64,000 nt of DNA from Obrimoposthia wandeli (taxonomy: Eukaryota): contig CDROCS010000295.1 of the NCBI GenBank assembly GCA_977020255.1, positions 62,001 to 126,000 on the forward strand, given 5' to 3'. Every line of letters begins with the position of its first letter. Position 1 is the stretch's first letter. This document shows, piece after piece, positions 19,273 to 61,732 of this stretch. A program made the position numbers and the translations under genes. The notes beneath the pieces are model-generated. The model saw only the letters and a program-made list of their open reading frames with translations, searched no databases and had not been told where the DNA came from.

Positions 19273-20589
19273 GGTGAAAAATAAATGTTTGGAAATATGT
19301 TTTGAAAATATAATATTAGATAATATAGAGCTAAGTCACAAGTAGTAGTCAATCATCAGTTGACTTTAAACTTTCTAATACATGAGAATTTCAAAAAGTG
19401 AAAATTTTATTTTCTAATAATAATTTAATAAAACAATCTCTATTTTTTAAAAATAAATTAATATATTTGACTGTTGTATAAATATATTTCGCTAATATGT
19501 GTTTGAATCTGTAAAAATATATAAATCATTTTAACATAAAGATAAATGTCCAATAAATAAATGTGCTATATTTAGCATTCATTCTAATATAGAAATGTAA
19601 TTGTTAGAGGAGTGCAAAAAATTTAATATAGCAAGCATATTTGTTAGACATTATACCTAAATTTATAAAAAAAAAGATTAGAGATTATATAAATATTTGA
19701 TTATATAAATATTTGATTTAAAAGATATTATAAAAAACATTAAAATGTCATTAATCTTTTACTTATGAATTCAATACAGACAAGGTAAGAGTATAGATAT
19801 AATGGGCGTACTAAACCATAAAACCATTCGCTTACACTCGTGCAAAAAGCAGTTTTAAAGATTCATCGCATTACATTATATCTTTATTTACTCAAGAACG
19901 TAAATCCATCAAGAATGTTTATATTTAACATATGTCATTAGCATATCAAATCCTGAGAAATCAGTATACTCTAAGATCTAAACATACAGTAATCATAAAA
20001 TCCCTTGTAAAAAATGACGAAATAATCTGAGGAGATACAGGTTAATAAGACTATGAAACCCAAACCTAATCACATATGAACTGATTACATTAATCCCAGC
20101 AAGTCCTCTGAGCTCCATTGTGATGTAAGGGATCATTAATTTCAAACTAAACAAAGATTTATCTCTCGCAACAAATCTAAATCATATATTTATGCATTAA
20201 ACCCTCCAAACATAAGATCTAGAATAAATAAAATTAAAGGAAGCAATCATCCAAGAGTAGCAATTAAGTAAAATCAATAGTTTCTCAACTAGTAATATCC
20301 CAATAAAATACGAGACTGAGAGAATACATGTGTGTTTTAGTGAAATATTAGATGCTTTCTAAAAAAAGTATAAACTAGTCATTAATTTAAATTCAAACAA
20401 AAAATAACTGATGTTCATACCTAGGAAAACGAAGAAACTACTGTAAAAATCTTTTAAACTCTTCAATTGATCTATAAAAATAAACTTTTTTGATGAAGTA
20501 ATGAGTTACAGAAAGAATAGAATGTAATAAGTGAAATTATCTAGATCAGGATATAATCTCGTATGGATCATAAACACAAGATATACATA

Positions 20590-21331
20590 TGTTGGGGTTT
20601 CTATATGAAACTGTTTTTCTAATATAGAACCTCTGAATGGAGGGCCCCAACGTGAGTTCTATAGACGCAGGACTTGTAGATGTTTGTGGCCTACTTAATG
20701 TTATGCTTGCCTTTCTCAATTCTTATCTGAAGGTTTGTTATTTCTAAATTTGAAGGGTCTATAACAACGCTGTCTAGTTGTAGGAAATCGTTTATTACTA
20801 AGCACACTAAATTAACACGTCTAATTACGTTCTAAAATTACAATACAATTCCTAAGACTTTCGCAAAGTCTCTACACAAGTGGGGATGATCCACGTATCA
20901 ATTTTATTTTAGGGTTGGTTGGTTACTAGAGTCTTTACTCTAAAATGTGACAAGGTTAAAATGGTGGGTTTTTGGAGAGCTGGTTGCTCTAAAATAGGGA
21001 ATGAGTTTAGAGAGCTGGTTGCTAAATATATGTGCTGATTTTAACCTTAACTTCGATTTTTATGTTCACTTTAATTTAGATGCACTTCCCAAACAATATG
21101 GTTACTTATTAAAATTCACGTTTAACTTTTAGATTCACTTACAAAAACAATCGGTTTACTTTATCAAAATTCACGGTTAACTTAAATTCGCTTTCAAAAA
21201 CAATCAGTTTACTTTATCAAAATTCACGTTTAACCCAAATTCGCTTTCAAAAAACAATCGGTTTACTCTATCAAAACTCACTTTCAACTCAAATTTGCCC
21301 CTCAACTCAATGTCACGAATGTTATTTAACA
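20590..21331 (-). mobile_element. LTR (probable 3' LTR) related to the LTR at 47214-49243
   Basis: The reverse complement of 20590-21000 aligns by eye at high identity to about 48790-49243, and both end AAACCCCAACA. The distal boundary (TGTT at 21331) is uncertain and no clear PPT was seen. Confidence 0.8.
21100..21290. repeat. Three to four degenerate ~55-bp tandem repeats within the LTR
   Basis: Unit aaaaacaatcggtttactttatcaaaattcacg(g/t)ttaac...aaattcgctttc. Confidence 0.8.
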
Positions 21332-21336
21332 TGTAT

Positions 21337-21762
21337 TTATACAAAATTGTAAAGATGCGAAGGATTAGGAAAGGAAAGGAGAGGAAAAGGAATTGTGTCA
21401 CTGTTTAATTGTCGATTGTGAGGTCGATGGTGGTAACTGGTCGGTTCTGCTCCTCCAGAAATAACAAAACCCGCTCCAAGGGTAATGCTGAAAATGTTGG
21501 AGTTACTCCGAAGTACAGCTCCAGTTGTTGAAAATGTTGAGGTTGGGACTTTGGCGGAATTGAGGGGCGCCGGGACTGTATCTCTTGTGGGTGTTGAGCC
21601 ACACCTTTCGAGCATACTGCCACGAGTGGCGGTCACGGCTAGATCGCCACACTTCTCGTACGTTGCGCTGCGCGTCGCGACGGCACATAGTGTAGATGGG
21701 GCATTGGCAGTGCTCGCCACCAATACAGCTGGTGGGTGAGCGGGTGCCCTTTGGACGTCCAC
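21337..21762 (-). CDS. Hypothetical Ala/Thr/Pro-rich protein in a GC-rich island of the cassette
   Basis: 141-aa ORF on the same strand as the RING genes; overlapping ORFs in other frames make the frame ambiguous. Confidence 0.3.
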   Translation of the reverse strand: MDVQRAPAHPPAVLVASTANAPSTLCAVATRSATYEKCGDLAVTATRGSMLERCGSTPTRDTVPAPLNSAKVPTSTFSTTGAVLRSNSNIFSITLGAGFVISGGAEPTSYHHRPHNRQLNSDTIPFPLLSFPNPSHLYNFV

Positions 21763-21775
21763 GGCAGTGAACCGT

Positions 21776-21961
21776 TCAATCGGCGAAGGGTGCTCGGCAC
21801 ATTGGGCATGTGATGTTGCCGGCGGGCCGAGCTTTGGCCCACATATAGAGGCACGCCTTGTGGAACCGGTGACGGCATCCGGCAGGGATTGCCGAGGAGT
21901 CCCGAACTCTGTCGAGGCACACCGAGCATATCATCAGCACAATGGTGTGTCGGTTAATCAC
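21776..21961 (-). CDS. Minimal RING-H2 (C3H2C3) protein
   Basis: CSVC-x12-CRHRFHKAC-x14-CPMCR; likely start at the internal ATG (MICSVC). Confidence 0.85.
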   Translation of the reverse strand: MINRHTIVLMICSVCLDRVRDSSAIPAGCRHRFHKACLYMWAKARPAGNITCPMCRAPFAD

Positions 21962-22253
21962 TTTTTTATTTGAAGTTTATATGATTTTTACCTTAATATT
22001 TTAACCTACCGAATTTTGTCTTTTCTTTGGGTATGTTTTTCGCATTTAAAGTATAAAAATTGTCTTTTGGGATTTCAGTATAATAATTACAATTTCAAAT
22101 AAACATCTTACATAAAAATGGTAAAGGTCTTTTTACAGTTTTATACAATTATGATTACAATTATGATTACAATTATGGTAGCTATTTTACCGCGGTATGC
22201 GATACACAGAGTTAGTTCATGATGTCACGTTTATGTCAAAAAGTTACCTTTGA

Positions 22254-22559
22254 TTATTGTTGGCTGTCGGGCTGGCCTGTGCGTCGCTCCTCCACGCAGA
22301 ACATGCACCAGCAGTCGCAGATGTCCTTCCAGCAGTGTACGATGGGTACCACTGCTTGAAAACTGTCTCGGTCGTATACGAAGTGTACCGAGAAGGATGC
22401 CCTGCACATCGGGCAGGTTGGGTAGTCGAGGGGTTTGTTGCTGTTGACAACTGGGATCCATGTCTCGAGGCATTGGACATGAAATTTGTGTTCACAGTTG
22501 TTTGGTTTGGTGTAGAGGTCCACGATGTTCTCGTAGCAGATGGAACATTCTCCAGACAT
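22254..22559 (-). CDS. RING-H2 protein with C-terminal CWK-x4-CWC-x-FC motif
   Basis: CSICYE...CEHKFHVQCL...CPMCR plus HCWKDICDCWCMFC. Confidence 0.9.
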   Translation of the reverse strand: MSGECSICYENIVDLYTKPNNCEHKFHVQCLETWIPVVNSNKPLDYPTCPMCRASFSVHFVYDRDSFQAVVPIVHCWKDICDCWCMFCVEERRTGQPDSQQ

Positions 22560-22619
22560 TGCTGTGAGAGGGGTGATGTTGAATTTGGGCTCAATTGAGG
22601 GCTGGTGGTTGTGTGATGT

Positions 22620-22919
22620 TTACACAAAAGTGGTCGAATCTTGTCGTTCTGCTGTACAGAAGAAACACCAACACTCTCTCAAATTCTTCCAACATAATAC
22701 CACCTGTACATCTACATCCTCTTGGTTGGGTTCTATTATGATGAACTTTGTGAATTGTCTTCTGCATACAGGGCAACGAGGGTATGTTGGATGTAGGAAC
22801 TCTCCATAAGTTCTGATCCATTTTGATAAACATTCCTCGTGGTGTAAGTGGTTGCAGGTATTGGGTCTTGTTCTTCGTTCAGTTATATCTTCCAAACATA
22901 TTGGGCATTCCTCTGACAT
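22620..22919 (-). CDS. RING-H2 protein with C-terminal CWK-x4-CWC-x-FC motif (paralog of 22254-22559)
   Basis: CPICLE...CNHLHHEECL...CPVCR plus LCWKNLRECWCFFC. Confidence 0.9.
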   Translation of the reverse strand: MSEECPICLEDITERRTRPNTCNHLHHEECLSKWIRTYGEFLHPTYPRCPVCRRQFTKFIIIEPNQEDVDVQVVLCWKNLRECWCFFCTAERQDSTTFV

Positions 22920-23046
22920 TCTAAATACGTGATGACAATTAATTTCTACATGAATTTTATATAATGCTACACTTGTTTATACAATCGCTTCTACATATTT
23001 CTACATATTTTTACACTCTTATTTATCTACAACCTCCTCTGACTTG

Positions 23047-23601
23047 TCATGTTTTGATGGGAGGCGGAGGTAAGGGTCGCAATTCCACTTCCTCTATCGT
23101 GGGTTCAGTACAGCATCGCAGTTCTTTGCATTTCCGTCGTATTCTTCGGCATATCTGACTGCCTTTCACGCACACGACTGTCAATAGAACTACTGCAGTT
23201 GACACTACGGCCATTACAATTAAAGCATTGACTGCAGTTATCCCGCTGTCTGAGGATTGGTAATCGTACTTTATTTTGTTGTTTGTCGGTTTGAGTGACG
23301 TCTCAATTGGTGCTTTTCGGTTTCCGTGTATTATGTCCGATTTTCTAATAAATCGTGGATTCGGATATTTTGTTTTTTGTCTAACGGGTATTATTATTCG
23401 AGATTTGAGATCCAGTGGAATCGTTCCCTTCACTCTTGTCCTCTCGATAATTGTGCTTTGGTTTCTGGAATCGAGCTCTTTTCCTTTCACTTCTGCCTTT
23501 TTTATGACTGCTTTTGACTTCTCGGAATGGCGTTTACTTCCTTTCACTTTTGCCTTCTTTATGACTGTGTTTGGTTTCCCGGAATTGAATTTGATGCTCA
23601 T
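23047..23601 (-). CDS. Membrane protein fragment (basic region, TM helix, Cys/Pro-rich tail)
   Basis: Hydrophobic ALIVMAVVSTAVVLLTVVCV followed by CRRIRRKCKELRCC...RPLPPPP; the frame continues upstream to a stop near 23700. Confidence 0.6.
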   Translation of the reverse strand: MSIKFNSGKPNTVIKKAKVKGSKRHSEKSKAVIKKAEVKGKELDSRNQSTIIERTRVKGTIPLDLKSRIIIPVRQKTKYPNPRFIRKSDIIHGNRKAPIETSLKPTNNKIKYDYQSSDSGITAVNALIVMAVVSTAVVLLTVVCVKGSQICRRIRRKCKELRCCTEPTIEEVELRPLPPPPIKT

Positions 23602-23945
23602 ACCTAGTCTACGAAATCGACGTGTCTGGTATCTTAGAGTTATATAGAATATTTCACCCGTTATTACTATGATTACGGTAGAGGTCTCTTTAGCATAACT
23701 GGAAATTCAGTTACATAGACATTCAGCATCATAATGTAGTACTAACATTTGGGTGGTATTGCGAAGTTGATTCCGTCATCTGGATTGGGACACGCCACTG
23801 TTACCTGGTCAGTTTCTAACAATCTGAAGAATAAATTAACAGAATTCCATACAGCTTTACGTCGTTTACCTGTGACCATAATCCTGTCAATAACTTTCCA
23901 GATGCGCTCGTCGTTAGGCAATATTACTGACTTTGTTCGGATAAT

Positions 23946-24242
23946 TTAAATAATCCGTTTCTTTTTTGATATTTTTATTCGTAGGTATAATACCTTTTCA
24001 TAATAGAATAGTATCAGTCGGTAGTAAAGTGTATGTTTGTCAATCTTTATTTCAATCTGGCGGATGACATACAATTTCTGATCGACATTTTCGGTTGCAG
24101 ATGTTTGTAGTTGAATGTCTACTATGTGATTCGTTTTTAGTAGAGGTATTTCTATGTATAACGCACGTATCGTATCTTGTCTCCATTTACTGATCATAAT
24201 ATCGTAACCAGCCTCAGTCGTGGTGATTTGTATGATCAGCAT
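23946..24242 (-). CDS. Hypothetical protein of the accessory cassette
   Basis: 98-aa ORF packed head-to-tail with its neighbours on the same strand; no recognised motif. Confidence 0.4.
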   Translation of the reverse strand: MLIIQITTTEAGYDIMISKWRQDTIRALYIEIPLLKTNHIVDIQLQTSATENVDQKLYVIRQIEIKIDKHTLYYRLILFYYEKVLYLRIKISKKKRII

Positions 24243-24250
24243 GATTCCTA

Positions 24251-25114
24251 TTATCGTTCGGTTCTGAATCTCAGGAACTTCTCAGGGATAACTAAAGTTA
24301 CTATATGTTCATATATCGTTGGCTGATACTCCGGTGCTGGTTCATTTATGAATGCTGGTCTTGGTATATTTGTGTCGAATTTTTGTAAATTCATTTGACC
24401 TGTTCGTCTTGTGAGATCGTGACGTGTTTTTTTTGATTTCAACTCGATCTTTGTACAACAAAACAAGATGAGCAATATTAATATTATGATTCCGATAATC
24501 AATGCCAGTATTGGATTAACCAATTCTAGAATACCATAACGTATTGTTTGTATCTCTTTACTTTTGATGGTTAATATTTTAAATTTATGTGTACTTTGGT
24601 TGGACATGTCACTGAGAAGTACTATTTTAGTTTGTCCAAATGTGTATCCTTCACATGTGACAACACTAACTCCATAATATCCATTTAGTGTTTTCATTTC
24701 TGTCGCGGGTATTATACATACTCGTTCTGGACACCCTTTCACACACATGATCATCACGGCTTTACTGTGAGACGTCTTGATTATTTCTTGGGTGTTGTCT
24801 AGATTTCTCAAATGTAGATTATATTCAGCTAGCGTCATCAATTCAGCTTTACCGATTGGAATGGCTTGTAGTACCAATCCAATTACTACTCCGTAGATCA
24901 ATCCTTGTGCAACAGTGCACAGGCCCTTGATTGTTCTTTTGCAAACAGTTTTGATTATTATTCGTTTGAGATAAATCTGTTTCTGGTTATGTCGTTTTGT
25001 CTTGGTTGTCTGTCGTTGCTTTGACATTTCTTCGATTCCGGTTTTCCGATAATCAACTGTACCGGTTTGCCTTGTATCACCAGCTTTCCGAATCCATTTT
25101 TGGCGGACAGGCAT
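24251..25114 (-). CDS. Type I membrane protein-like ORF
   Basis: Signal-like GLIYGVVIGLVLQAIPIGKA, ~100-aa Cys-containing ectodomain, TM ILALIIGIIILILLILFCC, and a tail with PAPEY and IYEHI. Confidence 0.65.
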   Translation of the reverse strand: MPVRQKWIRKAGDTRQTGTVDYRKTGIEEMSKQRQTTKTKRHNQKQIYLKRIIIKTVCKRTIKGLCTVAQGLIYGVVIGLVLQAIPIGKAELMTLAEYNLHLRNLDNTQEIIKTSHSKAVMIMCVKGCPERVCIIPATEMKTLNGYYGVSVVTCEGYTFGQTKIVLLSDMSNQSTHKFKILTIKSKEIQTIRYGILELVNPILALIIGIIILILLILFCCTKIELKSKKTRHDLTRRTGQMNLQKFDTNIPRPAFINEPAPEYQPTIYEHIVTLVIPEKFLRFRTER

Positions 25115-25320
25115 GTTTTATGTCCTTCCATCGTTTCGATTATCACTCTCTTACTTCCATACTCACGTGTTTTGATGACATCGCTGCCGAATACATACGT
25201 CGTACCTTTTGTATCCGCATCTTTTTGTATTTCCTTTACAATTCGTTTTCTTCGTCTGCATCCGGCGAACGTTGCTGATATTCTATCAAGTGTGCACTGT
25301 CGGTCAACTTCGTAGTCCAT
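24958..25320 (-). CDS. Hypothetical protein, probably a frameshifted upstream part of the cassette polyprotein
   Basis: 120-aa ORF overlapping 24251-25114 in another frame. Confidence 0.35.
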   Translation of the reverse strand: MDYEVDRQCTLDRISATFAGCRRRKRIVKEIQKDADTKGTTYVFGSDVIKTREYGSKRVIIETMEGHKTCLSAKNGFGKLVIQGKPVQLIIGKPESKKCQSNDRQPRQNDITRNRFISNE

Positions 25321-25699
25321 TTCGGAATTGATTCAGTAGTCTGTTTTGTGAATAATAGATCGCTTCATTCACTATGTTCTCCTCGATCCTTTCGTCTAGA
25401 TAAACAAGTACCTGGTTTGTTGGTCCGTTTGGTTTCTTCATTTTTACAAACTGGAATCTTTCTCTGTCGGTTCTTATGGATCAGAAACATTTTCTGATTA
25501 GCCAAACATCGATCAGTCCTATCAACACTAATAGCATCATCAGTGTCGGTGTATTGTACTGCATGATGTAGTTGTGGATTTATTTAAACCAGGAACTATT
25601 TCCATGGTTGGAGCCTATCTCTTGTGCTCCCGTTGTTGGCATTAGACAACTTAACAAGCCTAGTGCTAGCAATCTTCGTTACTGATAGCTGGGCACTGT

Positions 25700-27390
25700 T
25701 GTTGTAACCTCATTCATTTCTCGTTGTTGTTTCCGCCTTTCGGAGTATTTCTCTATTTCTCGAACGAGTAACGGTTTGAATTCCGTATCTGATCTATTCT
25801 GTTTGATGTAGATCATCGCTTCCTCCGGTGTATGACCATGGTACACCTATGGTAGGTGCTAACATTGTACTTTTTTCTGATATATCAGAACGCCATTTCC
25901 TTCTGTGACTTCGGCTTGGATTGTTTGAGTCAACTTCCTCAGGTATTGTTGTGCGTCGTTTACCTCCCGATTTGAAGCATGTATATAACGTGTAGTGTCA
26001 TCTTCAGTATTTTGACATATACTGATTATCTCGTTTTCGACTTCAACAATGTTAATCACTCGGTTGATACTGTGGAACTTTAATCCAGCTGTATCTATAT
26101 CTCCTGGGTGACATAGAAATACTTTCGGCATTATCTGGGTGATTTTGTCGACTCCTGCTAAGAATAATCCGGTCAACGATAGTGATTGGAGGAAATTATT
26201 TTCCTTTGGATCCTCGGGGATGTCATCCATCCGTATCTGTTCTTGCAACAGGAGTTGATAATTTGACAATTGTACCAAAAAATTAAGGTTTGGATTCACG
26301 ATACTTCGTCTTTCTTGTAGATATTTCAGCGCTTCTAGTACCTGCATTCGTCTACTCTTTATTAGATATGCTAATACCAAGGTTGCTGATCTAGAGATTC
26401 CTTTCTGACAATGTACCAACACTTTTCCTTGGTTTTGGAGTTCTTTGTAAATTATCTCGTTTGTTTCTCCGAACCATTCGAGAAGATTAGCCTCCATTGA
26501 GTCTTTCACTCTTAATGTCATAGCTCTGATTGTCTCATTGTAACATTGATCACATATGTTATCCCTTTTTCCAACAGTTTCTTTTTGTCTATTGTGTCTT
26601 CCACATTTCCGAGGTATAACATATCTTGAATTATCTCACTCATTGGTGGCATCAATTCTGACTCCTCAAGTTTTAGTCTTTCTAATCGCTTCTCTATTTG
26701 TTCATCTATGATGAATAATTTCGCCAGTTTCTTTCTTCTCAGCATTCGTATCGCTGGAGAGATATTCATCTTTGTCTCTGATGTCTGTTCCTTTGGTAGT
26801 TCCTCTTCCGACTCGGTCTCTTCTGCAGATTTAATTCGCCTTTCTTGTATATTCTGTTTCATGAAGTCTATGTTTCGTCTTTTTCTGCTTTCTTTAGCGA
26901 ATTCAACCTCCACGGTTCTTCCGAATCGCTCTATTATGTTATCTTCGGATTCTGTTGACTCTGGATTGCTGCTTTCAGGTTCACTGTCTTGACTAGACTC
27001 GCTCGAAGGGTGTTCTGGTATGTCTGTTTGAACTAAAATTAATGAAGGGGTTAGAATAATTGGATTGACTGGTCCTGAGTCTCTGTGAATCGGATACAGT
27101 ATTACACAATCCTTAAGTATCTCAACTTGGAACTGTGCTCCATAGCACATGACGATTGTTTCCAATTTACCCATGATGGACAATCAATCGAAATAGGTGA
27201 CATTCAGCTTAGATATCGGTGTGTTCGCATAATTCACTAAATTGAATCGTATCTCGGTCGATAATGGCCATCGATATTTTAGTAAAATTATAATTTCGTC
27301 GTTTATCGATGTAATCACACTTGGCGCGGATGATACTATTTCAGCATGATATTTTGGCTGGAATGAGTTTGTCATTTGTTCTCTGATCAT
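25700..27390 (-). pseudogene. Tandem dual-specificity phosphatase (catalytic DUSP plus degenerate second DUSP domain), disrupted
   Basis: PMSEIIQDMLYLGNVED...GITYVINVT (ORF 26518-27183) frameshifts into VLVHCQKGISRSATLVLAYLI...RSIVNPNLNFLVQL (ORF 25859-26521). Second domain: ITQIMPKVFL...INRVINIV...GVLIYQK...HTPEEAMIYIKQNRS, lacking the HCxxGxxR motif. ORF 27184-27390 is in frame upstream through a single TGA. Confidence 0.9.
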
Positions 27391-27433
27391 ATTGATTCTT
27401 TGTGGTTTATTTTTTTTATTCTTTGTGGTTTAT

Positions 27434-28165
27434 TCTGGACTTTGAGTGAAGCCAATATGTTGTTTTATGTTTAATAAATATTTTGAAAAATAATTTTGTC
27501 TCGTATTTTGTTTTTTTTTCCTCTAAATTATATATTGATCTGACCGATTTTTCTCCTCTAAATTCTAAAACTGACATAGATATTTATCATGTAGTAATTT
27601 ATTAATCTAAAATCTTTCTTAAAAATAGTAGTAATATTTGAAATCTCGTCTGCGAAAAGCCGCCGGGGTCAATATGGATTCTCGTGGTCTTCTCTAACCA
27701 CTTTTGAGATTAGTGGGAAAATTTTTAAAAAATATGGTGGGGGGGGGAGTACCCCTCTTTCTTCCCCCTTTGAGTGGGATGAAGACACACATACACGAAA
27801 TTTCACTCCACACACATGCACGAATTTTCACTCCACACACATGCACGAATTTTCACTCCACACACATGCACGAATTTTTACTCCACACACATGCTCGGTT
27901 TTAAAGGACAGTAGGGGGGTACCCCCCTTCCTTCCCCCTTTGGGTGGGATGAAGACACACATACACGAAATTTCACTCCACACACATGCACGAATTTTCA
28001 CTCCACACACATGCACGAATTTTTACTCCACACACATGCTCGGTTTTAAAGGACAGTAGGGGGGGGTAGAAAATCTTTCTATACACCAGCACGAAATTTC
28101 ACTCCACACACATGCACGGTTTTAAAGGACAGTAGGGGGGAGAGGGTGTGTTGATTACACCTACT
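27434..28165 (+). mobile_element. Orphan Polinton right end (direct-orientation copy of 37800-38347)
   Basis: Near-identical to 37800-38347 from gagtgaagccaatatg through the 25-bp cacgaaatttcactccacacacatg repeats, ending ACACCTACT; no matching left end or TSD found upstream. Confidence 0.9.
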
Positions 28166-32193: not shown

Positions 32194-32311
32194 ATCAATA
32201 GGATAAACTCCATTGAATTTATCACCCAGGACCTTCTCTGCTGATTCTTGTACTTGTTTTGAACTAAATAAAAATTAATAAATATAAATTTAAAATATGT
32301 CTTACTCCATT

Positions 32312-33500: not shown

Positions 33501-33529
33501 ACACAATTCAGTTTTGGCGCAACTCATTT

Positions 33530-34915: not shown

Positions 34916-34919
34916 GACT

Positions 34920-47213: not shown

Positions 47214-49243
47214 TGTTAAGATTAGGTTTTAAATAATATTAAAATAATTAATCTATTTATATTAAAATAAAAATCCTTGAAAGCAAGGTTATAATTAAAA
47301 ATAAAATTAAATTATAAAAGTAAATTCTTAAGAATAAAATTAGCGGGAAAATATTAGGACCACGAAGGTCATGTGTAAGCATGTGAGGTATATAAAGAAG
47401 TTAAAGTTAACCAAAAGGGCCCCCGAAAACGTTATAGAAGGTTAATTAAGAAACAGAGAAACGGAATTAAGAATAAGAAGAATTTGATTAAGAAGAAACA
47501 GAAGCAGGAAGAAAGGAAATCAATTAGCCAGAAATCAAATTGTCCATTAAGTCTAGACGGATTATAACGGCAGGCCTCAATCCCACGAGTCCATTAGCAG
47601 ACAGAGACAGTCGAATCGGATCGCAACAGGGCCACGATTCGTATAAAAAAGGAATTGGCTACAATTCATTGCACAACAAAAAAGAAACCAAAAAATATAA
47701 ATCAGAATTGTCAGTTAGATCGAAATTGATAACTTGATTTTCAGAAAAAGTATCAAAGAAGTAACGTGATCTCAGAAGTTCAGACAGACAGAATAAATCG
47801 AAATTGATAAAGAACTGTAGAAGACAAGCCGTGGAAAGGTTATAATTTATATAAAATTGAAACTGAAAAGAGTTTTAGAAACAGGAAGCAGCTAAGCTAT
47901 ATTGCTCAGAATCGACAAGTGGCACCGGAAGGAAAACAGCTATTCCAAAGGAAAGGCCAAATCAACGAACTAACAGAGATCGGAAGCACCTCAACCATCA
48001 GAACAATCAGGCAAGGATCTTTTGCCAGCAACTGACTTCGCGGATCAACACCAGTACTCAAATAAAGGTATAAAAAGACTAAGGAAGTAAAGTATCATTG
48101 TTAATTTGAAATTTTGGGAATATTTGATAAAAACTAAAGAAGTAAAATATCATTCTTAAATTGAGATTTTGTAAAGGGTTTTGATAAAAACTAAAGAAGT
48201 AAAATATCATTCTTAATTTGAGATTTTGTGAAGATTTTGATAAAAACTAAAGAAGTAAAATATCATTCTTAAATTGAGATTTTGTAAAGGGTTTTGATAA
48301 AAACTAAAGAAGTAAAATATCATTCTTAATTTGAGATTTTGTGAAGATTTTGATAAAAACTAAAGAAGTAAAATATCATTCTTAAATTGAGATTTTGTAA
48401 AGGGTTTTGATAAAAACTAAAGAAGTAAAATATCATTCATAAATTGAGATTTTGTAAAGGTTTCGATAAAAACTAAAGAAGTAAAATATCATTCATAAAT
48501 TGAGATTTTGTAAAGGTTTCGATAAAAACTAAAGAAGTAAAATATCATTGTTAAATTGAAATTTTGGAAATATTTTGATAAAAAACTAAAGAAGTAAAAT
48601 ATCATTGTTAAATTGAAATTTTGGGAAATTTTGATAAGAACTAAAGAAGTAAAATATCATTCGTAAATTGAAATTTTGTGAAGATTTGATAAAAACTAAA
48701 GAAGTAAAATATCATTGTTAAATTGAAATTTTGTGAATATTTTGATAAGAAGTAAAGAGAACGAAAACCGAAATTTACACCGTGAATAAACTAATTCCCT
48801 ATTTTAGAGCAACCTGCTCTCAAAAATTAATTCATATTTTCGAGCCAACAGCACTTCCAAAAGATCTACTACCTAAACCTTGTCGCATTTTAGAGTAAAG
48901 ACTCTCATAAAATAAATCACCCTAAAGTAAAATCGATACGTGGTTCATCCCCACTTGTGTAGAGACTTACAGAAGTCTTAGGAATTGTATTGTAATTTTT
49001 AGAACGTACTTAGACGTGTTAATTTAGTGTGCTTAGTAATAAACGATTTCCTACAACCAGAAAGCGTTTTTTAGACCCTTCAGAGTAAGAAACAACAAAC
49101 CTTCAGATAAGAATTGAGACAGGCAAGCATAACATTAAGTAGGCCACAAACATCTACAAGTCCTGCTTCTATAGAACTCACGTTGGGGCCCTCCACTAAA
49201 GAGGATCTATTTTAGAACACAGTTTCATATATAAACCCCAACA
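47214..49243 (+). mobile_element. 5' LTR (~2 kb)
   Basis: TGTT...AACA ends (left boundary inferred), TATATAAA near 47389, several AATAAA; the 3' part is homologous to 20590-21000 and is followed by the PBS. Confidence 0.7.
48071..48755. repeat. ~58-60 bp tandem array (about 11 copies) inside the LTR
   Basis: Unit aaaactaaagaagtaaaatatcattcttaaattgagattttgtaaagggttttgata with variants. Confidence 0.95.
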
Positions 49244-49251
49244 TATTAAAT

Positions 49252-49269
49252 TGGTGCCCCGAGTGAGGA
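49252..49269 (+). promoter_or_regulatory. Primer-binding site, elongator tRNA-Met-like
   Basis: TGGTGCCCCGAGTGAGGA is complementary to a tRNA 3' end ...UCCUCACUCGGGGCACCA, as recalled for metazoan elongator tRNA-Met; it lies 8 nt after the inferred LTR end. Confidence 0.75.
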
Positions 49270-49361
49270 TAGCTCGTCGGACACAGCGACTTCACGTAGA
49301 ATAAGAAAGCAAATTGAGAATAAGTTACAGAAGAGGAAGATATCAGCAAATTGAGATAAGA

Positions 49362-50177
49362 GAATTGATAAAGTTTGAGAATCGAGTAGATTTGTTCCTC
49401 GAATTAAGTAATTTGATAAAGTTTGAGAATCGAGTAGATTTGTTCCTCGAATTAAGTAATTTGGATAAATTTGTGAATCGAGTAGATTTGTTCCTCGAAT
49501 TAAGTAATTTGGATAAATTTGTGAATCGAGTAGATTTGTTCCTCGAATTAAGTAATTTGGATAGATTTGTGAATCGAGTAGATTTGTTCCTCGAATTAAG
49601 TAATTTGATAAAGTTTGAGAATCGAGTAGATTTGTTCCTCGAATTAAGTAATTTGGATAAATTTGTGAATCGAGTAGATTTGTTCCTCGAATTAAGTAAT
49701 TTGATAAAGTTTGAGAATCGAGTAGATTTGTTCCTCGAATTAAGTAATTTGATAAAGTTTGAGAATCGAGTAGATTTGTTCCTCGAATTAAGTAATTTGA
49801 TAAATTTGTGAATCGAGTAGATTTGTTCCTCGAATTAAGTAATTTGATAAAGTTTGAGAATCGAGTAGATTTGTTCCTCGAATTAAGTAATTTGATAAAG
49901 TTTGAGAATCGAGTAGATTTGTTCCTCGAATTAAGTAATTTGATAAAGTTTGAGAATCGAGTAGATTTGTTCCTCGAATTAAGTAATTTGGATAAATTTG
50001 TGAATCGAGTAGATTTGTTCCTCGAATTAAGTAATTTGATAAAGTTTGAGAATCGAGTAGATTTGTTCCTCGAATTAAGTAATTTGGATAAATTTGTGAA
50101 TCGAGTAGATTTGTTCCTCGAATTAAGTAATTTGGATAAATTTGTGAATCGAGTAGATTTGTTACTCGAAGTAATTA
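49362..50177. repeat. 48-bp tandem array (about 17 copies, two variants) in the 5' leader
   Basis: Variant A ttgataaagtttgagaatcgagtagatttgttcctcgaattaagtaat and variant B ttggataaatttgtgaatcgagtagatttgttcctcgaattaagtaat. Confidence 0.97.
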
Positions 50178-50717
50178 ATTGAATAGGTTAAGTCGAGTGA
50201 CGAGTCCTCGAATTAAATAAATTGATATAAGAAATCTTAAAATAAGAATTGTGAAATAAGATAAAAGTAATAAGTAAATTGATATCGTAAACGAATACAT
50301 AATTGATAAAACAACGAATAATAAAAAGGGACCAGCGTTTAATACTAGAAGACAAAGTCAGTTTCCACAGGAAGAGATAAAAAATAATAATTTAAGCCGA
50401 ATTGAACAGGTTCCTCAAAAAGATAAAAAAGTAATAGAAGAAGCTAGAATCGAAGAAAACGTATCAGAAAGAGACGTAAATCAATCAGCAGTTTCAACCG
50501 ACAGTTTTGATCTGACTGAATTGTTTGGTGAAATAAACCAAGAAGAAATTGAAATTATTGAAGTTCAAAACCCAGAAGAAATTGAAATTGCCAATCCAGC
50601 AGCGGTTGAGGAAGTTCAATTGAATAATATTGAAGAAATAGTTGAGGAGGACATAGCTGAAAATATGGCTCACGCAGGAGCTCAAGCAGGTAATAACCCA
50701 GGAATAATGTAGGAGGA

Positions 50718-53700
50718 ATGAATGCAGAACAGTTGGCACAAGCCTTGAATGCGACGTTGAGACCCAACATTTCGGGATCATTGCAGATTACAAAGTTTAA
50801 AGGAGATGAGGAAAGTATTTGTGACTTCCTCGCAGAATATTCGAGTTGCGCAGATGTTCAAGGATGGAACGATAGAGAAAAAGGTGTCCGTGTACAGGCT
50901 CATTTGACCGGATTAGCACTTGAAGTGTATAAACATTTGACAGAAGCAGAACGTTTAAATTGGGAAACGTTGGAAAGTGCTTTTATTGGAAAATTGGTAT
51001 TGGGAGACTTAGCAAAAGTAAATAAGCGAATCATGAGAGAACGAAAACAGAAACATGACGAAAGCGTGAATGAATACGCGTATGTTTTGAGAACCTTGGC
51101 CGCACGAGCGCACCCAAGAAGAATAGTGAGAAATCAGTTAGCTCAACCTGTAGCTCAAGAAGTACAAGCAGCGGAAAAGATCCGGAACCAAAATGAAATG
51201 GCAGAAGTTTTGTTAGATATATTTAGAGGAGGACTGAAAAAAGACATTAAAGTGTTATTGGCAGTATCGGATACAAATGATTTTGATATCGCCGTACGAA
51301 AGGCGAGAGAAATTGAGGAAAATATAAAAAATAACGCAGCATTGGCAATTTACACAATGACCACAGGTGATGACGATAAGACAAAGGTATTTGTGAAAAA
51401 GACAGAACCGAGTAATTTTCAGAATCGAAATTATGGACAAAATAAGTTCGAAAAAGGATATGAATCCAGTAACGGAAATAGAGATAATTTCCGAAGTAGA
51501 AATAGAGATGATTCAACAGGTAGAAATAATAGCGAGCCTTGGAACAGGAATCGAGACGATTCAAGAGGTAGAAGTAGTAATGATTCGTGGAACCGAAATA
51601 GAGATGATTCCAGAAATAGATTTAGTAGAGATAATTCAGGAAATTGCCTACCGTGGAGAGGAGACGATAGGAATTATAACGCAAACAGAGGATAGCGAAA
51701 TGACTCTCGATTTGGAAATAATGCAGGAAGTAGTGACGGAAGATTCAATAATCGAGGAAGCGGTTTTGAATCGAGTTTCCGAAGAAATGATTTTAGAGGA
51801 CGCTATGACAATAGACAGAATAGTCGTCGAATACAGTTCGAAAATGAACAAAATAAGATAGATATTCGAGGGAGAATAATGTATTATACGTGTAAACAAA
51901 TGGGTCACTACTCGAGAGATTGTACGAGAAGTAAAGAATTCGGAACTAACAGATTTGGAAATAATAATTTTGGAAATAATTATAGAGGATATAATTCACC
52001 CCTGCCATGGAATAGAGGTGGTGGGTATACTCTGCTGCAATGGAGACAGAATAATCAGTATACGGATAGACAACAGTCACCAGTCAGATACAATAATTAT
52101 GCAGACAGACAGCAAGGAGCTGAAAGATACAATAATTACGTAGGACAGCAAGGAGCTGAGCAATATAATAATTCCGGAAGATAAAATAATAATAATGTTG
52201 ACAAGACAAATAGTCGTGAGAGTTCGCCGAAACCGAAAGGAAATTTTAGTTACGTAAACGATGACAGCGATAGAAATCGCGAGATCGAACTTCGACGCGA
52301 AATAGATTTTGAAGATAGCGATAGTAAATTTGAACGAATGTTGGGAATAATTAAAGATTCACCGCATACAAAGATGGCGAATTTATCTACGTTGTCGAAA
52401 CAAGGAAAAAATCTGCACTCGAGAGAAGAGATGAATGATTTAATGAACCGAATACTAGAAGCGCATGAAAAACCAATAGAGAAAACGTGTAACGCACAAC
52501 CTATGACTGATCACATAGAAGCAGTAAGAAATGCTAAGAGTATGGAAAATGTGAAAAAGATAATTAGTGAAGCTAAAGAGACGTTGAATCAACCGTTAGA
52601 CGAAGCGAGTGAAACTCCAGAAGTTTTGGCAAAACTACAAACAATTAAAGTGCACAGATTGGAAGAAGTGCGAGCAGAATTGGTTAAACATAGTCATGAT
52701 AACTTGATTTACAAAGATGTATCACGAGGATTATTGAAAGGATATGGTCGTTACGTACAGAGATCAAATCAAAAAGGAACGATGAAAATTTCACTTCGAT
52801 TAATTTCCGGACAGAATATGCATGAAAAACGTAACGTATACCAAACAATGAAAACTATTCGAAAAAGGTTGGCCGAGAAACTCGAAATAGATGGAATGAA
52901 TATGTTGTTCCATTATAAAGGAAGATCACTAGATGATGAAGACATACCAGTCGAGTGCGGATATCCGATAGGAAACGAATTAGAGGAAAAAATTGATGTC
53001 ATCACTGTAGGACGTCAGGAGTTAGTAGATAATGAAGGATTGGCTGAGATATTAAATTCTACGTTAGATATGATAACAACACCTATAGAAATTCTAGACA
53101 GTTCAAGCGAAAGCGGAAATAATGATGTAGCTGAAGCTTGAAACAAGACGTCCACACCTGAACCAAACGTAGCTGAACCACAGGACGTGGAACCAAAAAA
53201 TGAGTTGACGAATCTGGTAGTTGAAGTACCACCTGAGCAAGAGATAATTCAAACCGGACAAGATGAAGTCACGGATGTAGCTAACCAAGTGAGAAACCGC
53301 GAAAAGCGTAACCGAACTAGTTAGAGAAGACGAAATCTCCGAGATTGTAGATTTAGATTCACCAATTTGGCATGCCGCATACAGAGATAGACAGGCAGAG
53401 CAGACGATGCGACAAAAATGAGGAGATTGGTCATGTAGCAGGACCAATTCAAGAGGTACAGTATAATGATGAACCGTATGATCCAGGTGAGAATCAAACT
53501 GAGTATCAGTATTTTCGAAGAGGGCCTGGAAAACCTAGAAAATATGGAAGTATATTACGAAATGTTCTAACTGCACCTCAAACTGATGAGGAGATACATC
53601 TAAGCATTGGACAGTTAGCAGCGTCATTAGAGCAGTATAGTGCAGAGCGAAATGAAGATATCAGGGGTGATATGAATTCGGAAGCTCCAAGTAGTAAAGA

Positions 53701-54055
53701 TATACTTACGGGAATTATCAGGCAAGTAAAGCCGAAGTTGTTCAAAATGTACAAAGATGAAACAACCGATATAACAGACAATTTGACTAGAGCAGTTAGA
53801 TCACAAATGTCTGCAGTGAAGAAAATGACTGCTAATCAAGAATACCATGCATCAATAGACAGATTCTATGATGGCGAAGTTTTAGCGAGATTATGTGGAA
53901 ACCAGACTACAAATAAGAAGCTAGTCACAGCGATTACATATATATGTTTCCAATTGACGGAAAGAACGAGCCAACCTCACGAAGTCAAACAAGGAATAAA
54001 TGAAGCGATATATCTGATCGAGAACGTATTGCAGCGACGAATTGACGAAAATTGA
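50718..54055 (+). pseudogene. gag: Extended Gag polyprotein (capsid, R/G/N-rich linker, Zn knuckle, ubiquitin-like domain, unknown domains)
   Basis: ITKFKGDEES..DFL...GWND, RKQKHDESVNEY, FRGGL (capsid); YYTCKQMGHYSRDC (CCHC with first C changed to Y). ORFs 50718, 51879 and 52338 share one frame separated by single stops; 53372 follows after a frameshift. Confidence 0.85.
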
Positions 54056-54181
54056 GGTTGGGCAAAATTAAGCGACTACGCTAAAACCATTGTGGAAATG
54101 AATGAAGACGATGAGGAACAATGCCATGAGAATCGTCAAAGAGAAAATAAAAAAACCGTCCGAAAGAAAGAAACAATCAAC

Positions 54182-54640
54182 NNNNNNNNNNNNNNNNNNN
54201 NNNNNNNNNNNNNNNNNNNNNNNNNNNNNNNNNNNNNNNNNNNNNNNNNNNNNNNNNNNNNNNNNNNNNNNNNNNNNNNNNNNNNNNNNNNNNNNNNNNN
54301 NNNNNNNNNNNNNNNNNNNNNNNNNNNNNNNNNNNNNNNNNNNNNNNNNNNNNNNNNNNNNNNNNNNNNNNNNNNNNNNNNNNNNNNNNNNNNNNNNNNN
54401 NNNNNNNNNNNNNNNNNNNNNNNNNNNNNNNNNNNNNNNNNNNNNNNNNNNNNNNNNNNNNNNNNNNNNNNNNNNNNNNNNNNNNNNNNNNNNNNNNNNN
54501 NNNNNNNNNNNNNNNNNNNNNNNNNNNNNNNNNNNNNNNNNNNNNNNNNNNNNNNNNNNNNNNNNNNNNNNNNNNNNNNNNNNNNNNNNNNNNNNNNNNN
54601 NNNNNNNNNNNNNNNNNNNNNNNNNNNNNNNNNNNNNNNN
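54182..54640. other. Assembly gap (459 N)
   Basis: Run of N bases. Confidence 1.
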
Positions 54641-54642
54641 AA

Positions 54643-55410
54643 CAGGCATCAGCGTTAGTAGCATACGACTGTAGCGTACCACAGATGGGACAAAAGTATT
54701 CACTGCTTGACAGCGAGGACTGTCCAGAATCACAACCCTCAAAATTAGAAATTAAAGGTGTTGAAAACTATTTCGTGTATCAGGATGTTGATAAAATACA
54801 GGTACAAGTGAAGGAATGCTCAGTTCATTCAAGTTATCACGAATTTTACTGTGGTCATAGAGGTTTTATGTCGGAAATCACACCTACCACACTGTACAAA
54901 CCACACAAGGTCTTTCCTGGAGATTGCGAAGGCGCATTTCGAACAGGAAAAATAGAAATAGATAAGAATTACAAACCTGATGTGAAAATTGGGGTGAGAC
55001 GATACGAAACAGTCACGAGAGTAGGATGACGATGGGCTGATGGATCTTGTGACGGAGGAACAAAAAACGTGCGTGGTACCGAAGTAACAGAGTTAGTAAT
55101 GGACGTAACTTACCAGATCGAATTAAAAACATGGACCGCCAATTTTGATAAAAATACAAAACGAATGATGAAGTATCCGGAATATAGATTGACAGATACA
55201 TCTTGTCATACAGGTGAATCCACCATTGTGTATCACGTGGATCCAAAACAATGCTCTTTAGTATTTTTGAAAGAGATTAGATTTAATAAAATAAAAGGGT
55301 TCCTGTATAATAAAGGTGGAGAAGGATTTCATAACATAACAGGACCAATTCCTACGACGCCGACACCTACACTGTTAATGGCAAAGAAAACAAAGAAAAA
55401 AAAAACCTAA
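54643..55410 (+). pseudogene. env: Chuvirus-like (class III fusion) glycoprotein, N-terminal ectodomain fragment
   Basis: QASALVAYDCSVPQMGQKYSLLDSEDC...VQVKECSVHSSYHEFYCG...DCEGAFRTGKI...VG*RWADGSCDGG matches the recalled YDC...SLLD.x.C...C...YCG...G..DG.C.G cysteine pattern of chuvirus-type glycoproteins; one in-frame TGA; no TM reached. Confidence 0.75.
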
Positions 55411-55522
55411 GAAAACTTTACATCATGAATTTTGCGAGTTTTGTATTGTTAAAAAAAAAATAAAGCAAAAAGAACAGAAAACTGAATGTATAGTCGAATA
55501 CCAAATCACACGTAAAGAGATT

Positions 55523-55882
55523 TTGGCTCAACAAGACACACCGGTAGTGTCATTCGTTAGAAGACTATATCCAAAAAAAGCAGAAAGAATCAGAGATTTG
55601 GTAGAAAATAAAATAAAAACTACGCGAAACGGATACGGATCAATTTTTGAATTACTGCGAGATAAAGATGACAGTACAATTGAAACAAAAGAAAAAGAGT
55701 ACATAAATGAACTAGAATACGTACTAGAAGATCCGGAATGCGCAGTTTGTATGGTCAACAAAATAGAAGTTGCCTTTTTACCATGCAGACATGTGAGAAC
55801 ATGTCGGAGATGTGCGAAGGAAATGGTATCATGCCCGATTTATGCCCAGAAAGATAATAGATCGACAAGTGAGAAATATTAG
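55523..55882 (+). pseudogene. IAP/MGRN-type RING-HC domain directly upstream of the protease
   Basis: ECAVCMVNKIEVAFLPCRHVRTCRRCAKEMVSCPI; a frameshift switches to RKIIDRQVR in the protease frame. Confidence 0.85.
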
Positions 55883-57241
55883 ATTTCACTATCCAAACAA
55901 AGGAAGTGGACCGACAAAATTTAATAATTCGATAAATACAATACACCATATGGGAAATATAAATGGAGCACAGCGACCAGCAGCTATCATTAGAGTGAAT
56001 AATTTAAAAGTAAAAGCCTTAATTGATACAGGTGCTGTAGCTTCGATAGTAAGTGAAGATTGTTTGACAGAGGAACAGAAACAAACAATGGCAGAACCAG
56101 ATGAATTCTTGGTATCGGTCAATGGAGACCCTGTAAAAGTGACGGGATAATTACCATGTACATTTATAATTGGACGTAATACGATCACTATACCAGTTAG
56201 AATCATGAAAGAATGTCTTGAACCTACAATTTTAGGAATGGATGTACTATCACAACTCAAAGGGATAAGTATTGATTTACAAGATCCAATATTGAAAGAT
56301 AGTAAGTCAAACAGACAAATAAATCAAATCAATGTAATTATAGAAAATCCTATAAAAATCTGTAAAAGATCGCAATTTCTTATTCAAGGTTACACATTAT
56401 AAGAAGATAAAGGACCAGTTGTGTTCGAACCATCACGGGATTTCATAGAGAAATACGAATTACCGATTGTGAGTACAGTATGTCTGATTGAAAACCACAA
56501 AATACCAGTTAGACTGATGAATACAACCAACAATGACATCCTATTATACAGAGGAATGAGGTTGGGAAAAATAGCACAGATGGAGAATTCCACTGTATGT
56601 GCTATGAAACTCGATAAAGATAGGAATGATTACGAAAAATAGTAATCCAAACAGAAAGACTGACAACCAGAGAAAAGAAACAATTACTCGATCTAATACA
56701 TAAATTTCCAAAAGTAATTGCAAAAAATCCGTATGACATAGGAGAAACACCTGTCATAAAACACACAATACCGCTGACAGAAGACAAAGTAGTCAGAAAA
56801 AGACCATATCGAGTACCATTACAGTTACAAGATGAAGTCAAAAGTCAGATTGAAGATATGTCTAGAACAGGAGTAATTAGACCGAGTTTTTCACCATTTT
56901 TAGCACCTGTGGTGTTAGTAAAAAAGAAGGATGGAAAAATGAGATTATGTATAGATTTCAGAGAACTGAACAAGATCACAAGAAAAGATGTGTATCCATT
57001 ACCTAGAATTGAAGAGATGCTTGATAAATTAGGTAATTCAGATTATTTTACGACATTGGATTTGCAGAGTGGATACTGGCAAATCGAGATAGAGGAAGAG
57101 GATAAACACAAAACAGCCTTTTCCTGCGGAGATGGACTATACGAATGCGAAAAAGGCCATTCGGACTGACAGGAGTGCCAGCAACATTTCAGCGTTGCAT
57201 GAATTTTGTACTCGCATCATGTGCAAACACGATGGTTTAAT
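55812..57241 (+). pseudogene. pol: pol, 5' part: aspartic protease, spacer and RT N-terminal half
   Basis: ALIDTGA and ILGMD (protease); RPYRVP, SPFLAPVVLVKKKDGKMRLCIDFRELN, YPLPRI, TLDLQSGYWQI, KTAF, PATFQR (RT); stops and frameshifts. Confidence 0.95.
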
Positions 57242-60200
57242 GGTTCTAGGACAATTACCCGCCGGACAATTACCCCCCGGACATTTACCCGCCGGACAAC
57301 TACCCGCCGGACAATTACCCGACTAGAACAATTACCCGCCGGACAAATACCCCCCGGACAATTACCCGACTAGGACAATTACCCGCCGGACAATTACCCC
57401 CCAAAAAATACAGGGCGAGTTGATGCACTTTTAATATAAACAATAAATTAAAATTTTTTACGAAGAGGGGTAATTTAATTATATTTATTTATTTAGATTA
57501 ATTAAATTAGTAAAAAGTTATTAATAAGGGGGTAATCAAAAAAGTGAAATATTAAAAAAGTAAAAAAGTTAAATAAGGATAAACTATAAAGGGAGGTATT
57601 AAAATGGTAAAAACTTTAAAGTGTTACTTAATTAAATGACAGATACTAACATATGATAATGGAATTGGTCTAGTATGACTCATGTATATTTAGACGCCAG
57701 TAATACAACTTAACGCTAAGAGAGTTTGTATAAAACTAATAAAACTATTTAGGTCAAAATTGATAAGTATATGTTCACAATGTTGGGGCAGACTTAATGA
57801 ATTAGGAGTTGGTGCGTGTTGAGGCGTAGCCAGTAGTTACAATTAAATCGAAGTTAGTTAGATTTATAAGTTAGTAAGATTCACAAGATAAACAATCATT
57901 GTATATTTTACCCATGGAATTTATTAACTCTAACCGGGGAAAAATAAAGGTACTATACAAGGGCTTTGTATATGTTAAGTCCAAAACGTTGTCATCTGGT
58001 GCTGTTTCTTACGAGTGTGAGCTCCGACGAAACAGCAAGCAATGCAAAGCTAGGATTATAGTAAGTGGCGATATGATTGTTAAACAGTTCAACGACCATA
58101 CTCATGCTGCTGATATTGGTCGACCAGAGGCACTGAAGATTCGTCAGTCGATAAAGAGTCGTGCTGTAAATAACGAGGAAACCCCTCAGCAAGTTATCAC
58201 CCAAGAGCTTCAAGTTATTTCCGACTCTGCTGCTGTGAAACTTCCAGCCATACGCAACATCCGACGTTGTATTCGTCGACATCGTCAAGTTGCCGGAAAT
58301 CCTCCCGCAATCCCGCAGACTCGTGCCGAAATTATACTACCTGAAAAGTACAAACGTACACTGGCAGATCAGCCTTTCCTATTATTTGACAGTGGTTCAG
58401 TTGATGATAGGATCCTTATGTTCTCTACAGAGCGTAATCTGCACATCCTCGACACATCCGTAGACTGGTTTTGTGATGGAACGTTTAAGGTTGTACCTGG
58501 TGTATTTTACCAATTATTTACAATTCACGGTCTTACCAACAACCACATGGTTCCCTGTGTCTATGCACTTTTGCCAAATAAGCAGGAAGTGACGTACGTG
58601 ACCTTTCTACGTGAACTTTATAGACTTAATCCGGAGCTAAAACCACGATCTATCATGATTGACTTTGAGTCGGCTTCCAGGAATGCACTGGCCGAGGTTT
58701 TTCCTGCCGCAACCATACAAGGATGCTTTTATCATTTGTCACAAGCCGTCTACCGCAAAGTCCAAAGTGTTGGACTTCAAGAGCAATATCAAAACAACGC
58801 CGATTTTAGCTTAAAGATTTGCATGATGACTGCTCTTGCTTTCACTCCACTGAACGATGTGGTAAACTCATTTGAACATCTGGCTGATTCTATGCCTGAG
58901 AAAGCACAACCCATTATAGACTATATTGAGGACACCTATATTGGTCGACACCAACGCTCTTCGCTCATGCCATGTGGAACGTCCGAGACAGAGTAGAGGA
59001 AGGACTTCCACGTACCAACAACCATGTGGAAGGTTGGCATCGACGTATGCAGTCTAATGTGGGAGCCTATCATCCTAGTATCTGGCATTTCCTGGATGTA
59101 TTGCAACGCGAGCAATCACTCAACGAAGTCATCATGACACAGATTCTAGCCGGACAAGCAGCCCCACCCCAACGTGGCAAATACAAGGCCATCACCGAGC
59201 GCCTAGTTACTGTTGTGGCTGACTATGACAACCGTGCTATCCTGGACTTTCTTTGTGGTATTGCACACAACCTACAGATGTAGATTCTGTGATGATCAAT
59301 GTGACTGTTATAGAATTGTTCTTATTCAAGAATAACTATACAAATAAATAAACACATGTCAATTGTTTTTTTCTTACCTTCCAGTATTCTTAACAATATC
59401 TATTCAATAACCTATTTAGCACTTTACTTTCTTCTTTTTCTTGTTGTAAGTCCTCTACTTCAAGTTTTTTCCTTTCTCTTACTTCTTCATCGTGTCTAAT
59501 GGCTACGCCTCAACTTGTCCAGCCCGAAACGGTTTCTAATTGAGTAAGTCTGCATCAACTCTCTCCAGGGCGAGTTGAGGCTCTTTTAAAGGGGTAATTT
59601 TGAGTAATTTTTTTTTGTAATGGAGAAACAAAAGCTAAAATAAAAAGGTCTAAATTGTAATTTAATTTCCATAAATCTGAAAGGGATGGGTATTAAAAAT
59701 TTTATGGGGTAACAAAATTTAGTAAGAGGTATAATAATTAATAAGATCAAAATATTAAAAAATGAAATAGTAAAATTTTAATAGGTGTAATTAAAAAAAA
59801 GTAAATAATAATAAGGGGTGTTAAAAAAGGGAAACATTAAAATATTAATAACAGATGATATAAAAAGGAAAAAAATGAAATGAAGATAAAAAAAGGAAAC
59901 AGTCAAACTTTAAAGGTAAAAAAGTAGAAAAGGTAAATATTAACAAATGAGACATTGTGAACATATACTTATCAATTTTGACCTAAATAGTTTTATTAGT
60001 TTTATACAAACTCTCTTAGCGTTAAGTTGTATTACTGGCGTCTAAATATACATGAGTCATACTAGACCAATTCCATTATCATATGTTAGTATCTGTCATT
60101 TAATTTTGTAACACTTTAAAGTTTTTACCATGTTAATACCTCCCTTTTTAGTTTATCCTTATTTAACTTTTTTCCTTTTTTAATTTTTAGGTTTTTATAC

Positions 60201-60460: not shown

Positions 60461-60468
60461 GGTTTAAT

Positions 60469-61547: not shown

Positions 61548-61732
61548 AAAGAGATAATCTTGAGCTGTGGTTTGTAAATATCAACAAGATTAAGATTCCA
61601 ATCAGAGCCGAATATTATAAGAATGTTTAAAATTCAAATTGCGATTGGTCCTAAGCATAATAAACTTCGCTGTCAATTACGATTTGTCTGGAGCACTGCT
61701 GACTGTATCTTATTATTTCAGGCGCAGCCGCC

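Follow-up and report, generated by a model that had tools for sequence, protein, structure and literature searches.

The minus strand of a contig from Obrimoposthia wandeli (GenBank assembly GCA_977020255.1, contig CDROCS010000295.1) encodes two DUSP folds in a single gene, close to the end of an LTR on one side and to a Polinton on the other. The locus raises the question to which of these the gene belongs, and what a phosphatase would do there. We analysed a stretch of 64,000 nucleotides (positions 62,001 to 126,000 of the contig, forward strand; hereafter the window, numbered from its first letter), the main features of which are collected in Table 1.

Table 1. Position of the DUSP gene, its neighbours and the sister element within the window
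Feature	Position	Strand	Basis or content
3' end of LTR (437 bp)	20587..21023	-	87.6% over 442 columns to 48808-49246
Minority-sequence stretch	21029..22000	-	third RING-H2 ORF 21976-21779, 53-bp tandem array 21129-21288
Two tandem RING-H2 ORFs	22257..22976	-	Pfam zf-RING_2 E 4.5e-10, 3.3e-8
Broken ORFs, two or three membrane proteins	23050..25678	-	hydrophobic segments 25552-25496, 24511-24455, 23223-23167
Broken tandem-DUSP gene, first ATG to final stop	25679..27390	-	ORFs, profile search
DUSP-fold domain 2	25710..26146	-	profile alignment; loop short, two stops
DUSP domain 1	26234..26679	-	general-acid Asp 26503-26501, P-loop HCQKGISRS; split over two frames here
Acidic/Ser-rich stretch	26767..27024	-	20 Glu and 13 Ser in 86 residues
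N-terminal part of DUSP gene	27025..27390	-	about 120 codons, holds first stop; no family
Right-end piece of Polinton	27434..28165	.	matches 37800-38330; outside LTR cassette
Sister element	47214..61922	+	apparent 5' LTR 47214-49243, primer site 49252-49263, coding domains by Pfam

The gene starts with an ATG at 27390 and ends with a stop at 25681-25679, beyond the end given in the initial annotation. All motifs quoted there were located on its minus strand, namely HCQKGISRS at 26413-26387, ITQIMPKVFL at 26143-26114, INRVINIV at 26068-26045 and EEAMIYIKQNRS at 25825-25790, and the acidic and serine-rich region indeed precedes both domains. Pfam DSPc matches 25859-26635 in two stretches (E 3.1e-32). 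When all six frames of the whole window were searched with a profile derived from 167 DSP domains (library hits), three places had an iE below 1 (9e-42, 2e-6 and 2e-4), all within the DUSP gene. The N-terminal part has no Pfam match and its best PDB match reaches only E 0.16; a likeness to deaminases was dropped at this value. A basic helix follows the acidic stretch. Residues 220-229 resemble a MAPK-docking motif by its consensus, but at a level expected by chance, being equalled in 523 of 5000 shuffles.

Judged from its residues, domain 1 would be a genuine DSP, with an HCx5R(S/T) loop and a general-acid Asp in a DSPc fold. No open frame crosses the whole domain in the window copy: the frame switches near 26540, where only 29 nt are left of a segment that spans 15-28 codons in homologues (median 17, 63 homologous domains). 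The P-loop quoted in the initial annotation is intact, but the window copy as a whole is not, as its frame is already broken before the loop. The loop of domain 2 is six codons short (20 versus 26), and two further stops (25861-25859 and 25849-25847) both fall in the would-be P-loop; the first stop of the gene lies at 27186-27184. As both breaks, the frame switch and the short loop, are shortfalls of sequence and not insertions, no intron is needed in the gene, and the proposed intronless tandem of two DUSP folds stands.

Domain 2 had been described as a DUSP scaffold that has lost its catalytic motif. The scaffold motifs are kept and the catalytic residues are absent: in the profile alignment, which covers DSP profile positions 21-104 and 125-164, Asn occupies the general-acid position, Tyr-Gln replaces His-Cys and the Pro-Asn motif is gone. 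In the window copy domain 2 is therefore a pseudophosphatase in the sense of a DSP fold without Cys-x5-Arg. On its own it scores 17.6 bits against Pfam DSPc (E 0.0035), below the cut-off of 33.5. An alignment-guided model, which is biased by the alignment, shows two alpha/beta domains with a mean pLDDT of 81.5, while folding domain 2 from its single sequence gave no confident structure (pLDDT 33.5). What the earlier description missed is that the loop itself is damaged here, so that the window copy gives no clean reading of the missing Cys. Several catalytic positions outside the damaged stretch differ as well, yet the domain is open over about 95 codons, and from these residues it appears likely that domain 2 was dead before the window copy decayed. 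A recent internal duplication of domain 1 giving domain 2 is not supported (local score 29).

To place the phosphatase we compared domain 1 with cellular and viral enzymes. Its best PDB sequence matches are DUSP10, DUSP4, STYX, DUSP2, DUSP16 and DUSP1, and MAP-kinase phosphatases (DUSP10/MKP5, DUSP4, DUSP1, DUSP16, DUSP5) head both the sequence (E 4e-18) and the fold matches, with about 40% identity and, for the predicted model, an rmsd of about 1 Å over 90 residues. The window protein differs from these enzymes by its second, dead DUSP fold, and it has no Pfam match to the rhodanese domain with kinase-interaction motif that is a trait of MAP-kinase phosphatases. In a quick tree (172 domains, 101 columns) domain 1 falls outside the well-supported clades, with 86 of 168 forks open, and it is at most 46% identical to any of the 172 domains. 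Since the tree leaves domain 1 unplaced, its kinship with the MAP-kinase phosphatases is a matter of ranked scores. The phylogenetic check against VH1 and baculovirus PTP that the initial annotation had suggested accordingly gives a divided answer: by score domain 1 is nearer to the cellular MAP-kinase phosphatases, but the tree does not place the donor. In a representative library the best relative of the DUSP has E 1.4e-30 and 39% identity, none being close.

Viral DSPs (those of giant viruses, an iridovirus, entomopoxvirus AMV078, baculovirus PTP and poxvirus VH1) share the fold and are virus-borne; they differ in that they are mostly single-domain proteins of DNA viruses. BFVD yielded 33 matches with E up to 0.001, and giant-virus DSPs match the predicted domain model about as well as human ones do (E 7e-7 versus 2e-6). 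The baculovirus enzyme (rank 39, 19% identity) and that of turkeypox (rank 45, 22%) are distant; of the 71 PDB sequence matches of domain 1, the best 60 include no viral DSP. Searches with the DUSP query found relatives among 0 of 6 candidates from viral contigs and 0 of 140 from metagenome contigs.

A Slingshot origin was suggested by Atlas matches, all below 0.9, and by motifs typical of Slingshot. It is not supported, as the PH-like and DEK_C Pfam domains found in the control P0037 are absent from the window protein. In the PH-like comparison 208 of 2000 shuffles reach the score and hhalign spans only the DSP start; Slingshot-like domains rank 8, 15 and 73 among 167 for domain 2, and 6, 21 and 27 for domain 1.

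Cellular tandem DSP proteins (P0009, P0013, P0014, P0022 and others) have the same live-then-dead order as the window gene, an order found in 10 of 43 multi-domain proteins among 150 matches. Domain 2 shows no special likeness to these proteins (local scores 33-38), and we know of no such cellular protein that is transposon-borne. The live-then-dead tandem is thus not new in itself, but its placement in an LTR element may be.

Downstream of the DUSP gene the broken ORFs for membrane proteins have no family match. Within them, a type I membrane-protein ORF (24254-25117, minus strand) has Atlas neighbours of at most 0.85 that include viral fusion-glycoprotein clusters, which is a lead only. The two tandem RING-H2 ORFs are paralogues (37 of 93 residues identical), each with a C-terminal Cys/Trp motif; a RING query gave 2 of 7 candidates, with the likeness confined to the RING core.

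Beyond these ORFs lies a stretch of minority sequence and then the LTR end. The latter has no other match in the window besides the 48808-49246 end, 28 kb away, which belongs to the element that we refer to as the sister element. Beyond the final 437 bp the two LTR regions show no significant similarity, their scores being reached by 46, 100 and 77 of 300 shuffles; a weak match, reached by 46 of 300 shuffles, sets the sister LTR start near 22010, where depth drops. The sister copy ends in CAACA at 49243, and the primer site behind it has 1 mismatch in 12 to two tRNA-Met(CAU) ends and also 1 to two 'others' (PMC13524379 supplement 1); no tRNA genes were found in the window. Because the match stops at the boundary between LTR and primer site of the sister element, the end of the cassette lies where that of a 3' LTR is expected, and the cassette terminates in an LTR end of the Burro-type family described below. 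The LTR-linked cassette of the initial annotation is borne out to the extent that same-strand intronless ORFs run into an LTR end; no contig among the four sequencing runs considered below spans both cassette and LTR. No pol adjoins the cassette in the window, which lacks the 5' half of this LTR element.

The sister element carries, in this order, gag, CCHC, a ubiquitin-like domain, an assembly gap, an env piece, RING, protease, RT, RNase H and a second RING (Gag E 0.0012; CCHC 2.8e-5; ubiquitin/SUMO-like 0.018, which is weak; RING 5.8e-10). It has neither integrase nor 3' end; the place of integrase, after RNase H, is taken by the second RING. The env piece, between gag and protease, matches Monjiviricetes_fusion at 54643-55026 (E 2.4e-12) directly after the gap (54182-54640, 459 N) and covers profile positions 19-192 of 653. 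Compared by eye with PMC13524379 supplement 2, it is like the six Schmidtea C1a rows and unlike the ten bryozoan ones; together with flanks of 27-30% GC this suggests a triclad host. A MULE transposon (57246-60453; FLYWCH and MULE domain, 505-bp inverted ends at 95%) is inserted in the RT. A 56-bp array (48068-48758) lies inside the 5' LTR, and a 48-bp array (49227-50150) in the leader after the primer site can be read as a 16-residue repeat in one frame.

According to PMC6431247, Burro combines RING, BIR, BCL2-like and ubiquitin-like domains with an env in frame between gag and protease, and PMC13524379 records that nematodes, bryozoans and flatworms have GAG-ENV-POL elements whose env is of the gB type. 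Burro/GYPSM1, giant Ty3/gypsy elements of planarians (PMC6431247), and the Schmidtea GAG-ENV-POL errantiviruses of class C1a (PMC13524379) have the plan gag-CCHC-ubiquitin-like-env-RING-PR-RT-RNase H that the sister element shares, and the window env is mononegavirus-like and placed as in those elements. The sister copy, which has deletions and the 459-N gap, gave no match to BIR, BCL2-like, MATH, ankyrin or dUTPase-like parts (PMC6431247 used HHpred). Since BIR, BCL2-like and dUTPase-like parts were not detected, we call the element Burro-type rather than a proven Burro. The two groups are also alike in very high copy and in cargo aimed at ubiquitin and death pathways, whereas the window family differs in having the DUSP, membrane ORFs and RING-H2 ORFs 3' beside the LTR.

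Two of the 33 loci found in a metagenome scan with RT (L001 and L002) are clear relatives of the sister element, with RT 59-62% and env 39-43% identical. In both, env lies inside a single-frame polyprotein and a separate DEDD exonuclease ORF stands 3' of integrase. L001 (2-12104) and L002 (97-13470) have an open GAG-ENV-POL, with frames of 3426 and 3703 codons and two or three protease-like stretches. None of the 33 loci has a DSP domain (best full-sequence E 0.07), and the env query found relatives in 0 of 1 candidate from viral contigs. Captured enzyme genes 3' of pol are also found in rotifer LTR elements (GDSL esterase, DEDDy exonuclease; PMC5408684), and the exonuclease of L001 and L002 is of this kind; the extra ORFs of rotifers act on RNA or lipid, unlike a phosphatase.

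We then characterized the abundance of the cassette in four runs from one sample, possibly the one assembled. In each run between 86,495 and 103,428 contigs, making up 1.15-1.23% of the records read, align to 20300-27560 (7.3 kb) with a spread of identities. Summed depth, which is not a copy number, is 1e5-5e5 over the DUSP bins and 0-18.5 in the flank bin. The other copies differ from the window sequence by 686 differences and 27 indels in the contig comparison, and the first stop is not common to them, as more than 99% of summed contig depth reads otherwise in 4 of 4 runs. Over the minority stretch summed depth is only 150-25,600 compared with 56,000-630,000 on either side, i.e. 10- to 1000-fold thinner, which indicates that most copies differ from the window copy there; the stretch is possibly a variant U3. 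The third RING-H2 ORF within it (region 21500-21976, minus strand) has a Cys-rich continuation after its stop. Its GC content of 59%, weak A bias and low depth make it probable that a minority lineage acquired it later, perhaps inside U3.

Base and codon use connect the cassette with the sister element. On the sense strand the DUSP gene (A.39, T.22) is made up like gag-RT (A.40, T.23), the Polinton having T.31-.32. The synonymous codons of the DUSP gene favour the LTR element over the Polinton with a log-ratio of 39.7 (bootstrap 20-59, 562 codons), and the codon use of the membrane and RING ORFs points the same way.

Upstream, the Polinton end joins the cassette 43 bp from the DUSP start, oriented as the Polinton's own minus-strand genes. 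Loose contig ends at 27434 continue, in 4 of 4 runs, with sequence like 37770-37800 of the window Polinton; because they run on as ordinary Polinton, the join at 27433/27434 is not the usual state of the Polinton. The decayed Polinton itself (29216-38347) encodes a protein-primed polB, an integrase and an A32-type ATPase, and further terminal pieces lie at 1711-1885 (a short palindromic remnant) and from about 62390. The window also contains a Mariner/DDE_3 transposase remnant (38536-38829, minus strand) and protein-like open stretches at 13321-13731 (plus) and 16038-16319 (minus) that have no Pfam match and are possible host exons.

The position of the join could suggest that the DUSP gene is cargo of the Polinton (Maverick), placed behind its right terminal repeat in the orientation of its minus-strand genes. 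Contig continuations and codon use both argue against a gene held between terminal repeats in many copies, the base composition is unlike that of the Polinton and on its other side the cassette finishes with the end of an LTR, so that this origin is very improbable. Alternatively, the DUSP may be the cargo of a satellite, a non-autonomous LTR element copied in trans whose LTR end and priming signals are all that it has in common with the sister family. Such an element would account for a common LTR of just 437 bp, for the lack of pol beside the cassette, for a cassette depth at least equal to that of the LTR end and for the lack of a DSP in L001 and L002. The missing pol is, however, explained by the Polinton join that cuts the upstream part, the DUSP gene has the codon use of the gag-pol ORFs, and L001 and L002 keep accessory ORFs 3' of integrase; we regard the satellite as unlikely.

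According to the initial annotation, the retro-captured gene would be refuted by a single-copy processed pseudogene of a host DUSP, which in this reading would lie near the LTR by chance. The gene is intronless and broken, as such a pseudogene would be, but about 1.2% of all contigs fall on the stretch at a depth four orders above the flank, and the idea is scarcely tenable unless the aligned contigs stem from a different organism in the sample. A host DUSP could also have been captured and multiplied without benefit, the residues of domain 2 being lost by decay. This would fit the four breaks in the window copy, two of which lie in the domain-2 loop, whereas domain 1 keeps all catalytic residues, domain 2 departs at catalytic positions outside the damage and the first stop is not common to other copies. 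The preservation of domain 1 residues despite its low identity to all other domains, together with the element-adapted codon use, implies long coding constraint, and passive carriage appears improbable.

Our preferred reading, which we consider probable, is that a Burro-type GAG-ENV-POL Ty3/gypsy family of high copy number carries the DUSP as an accessory gene in its 3' part, and that the window shows a decayed 3' half of one insertion with a Polinton join upstream. That the gene is cargo of this LTR family is likely; that it is selected cargo, with domain 2 dead throughout the family, is a reasonable expectation. A host DUSP mRNA would have been captured long ago during reverse transcription and then kept by selection, and whole elements would express a soluble phosphatase from their 3' region. 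MAP kinases are a tentative choice of substrate: domain 1 might strip the activation-loop phosphates from the stress MAP kinases JNK and p38. Domain 2 could serve as a non-catalytic docking or regulatory partner, a role for which Cdc14 and STYX provide functional parallels among non-catalytic DSP domains. Phosphatase and RING ligases together may blunt stress and death signalling and thereby keep element-expressing cells alive. Such a survival role is consistent with the report, as cited in PMC13465017, that the IAP region of Burro1 protects stem cells. A bolder picture, which is doubtful, is that of a giant env-bearing family with a 3' region for host control resembling that of large DNA viruses, in which a live and a dead phosphatase domain directed against stress MAP kinases, membrane proteins and RING-H2 ligases are selected in thousands of copies and form a second arm of stem-cell survival beside the Burro IAP.

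In the literature searched we found no report of phosphatase cargo in LTR elements; the two principal papers on Burro (Grohme 2018; Lee 2026) lie outside it and may already show such a gene. The word phosphatase is absent from the main texts of PMC6431247 and PMC13524379 and from PMC5408684 and PMC11410931, and it occurs once, in an unrelated context, in PMC9025612; the Burro passages of PMC13238120 and PMC8532177 add nothing on cargo. Within this literature a signalling phosphatase would, if true, be cargo of a kind not yet described for Ty3/gypsy elements. Since the family makes up about 1% of contigs in the runs, selection on both domains can be measured from natural copies. Burro-type elements are already known to interfere with ubiquitin and apoptosis, and there is a report that one of them aids planarian regeneration. 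If the present reading is true, a retrotransposon could in addition act directly on the kinase pathways of wound and stress responses.
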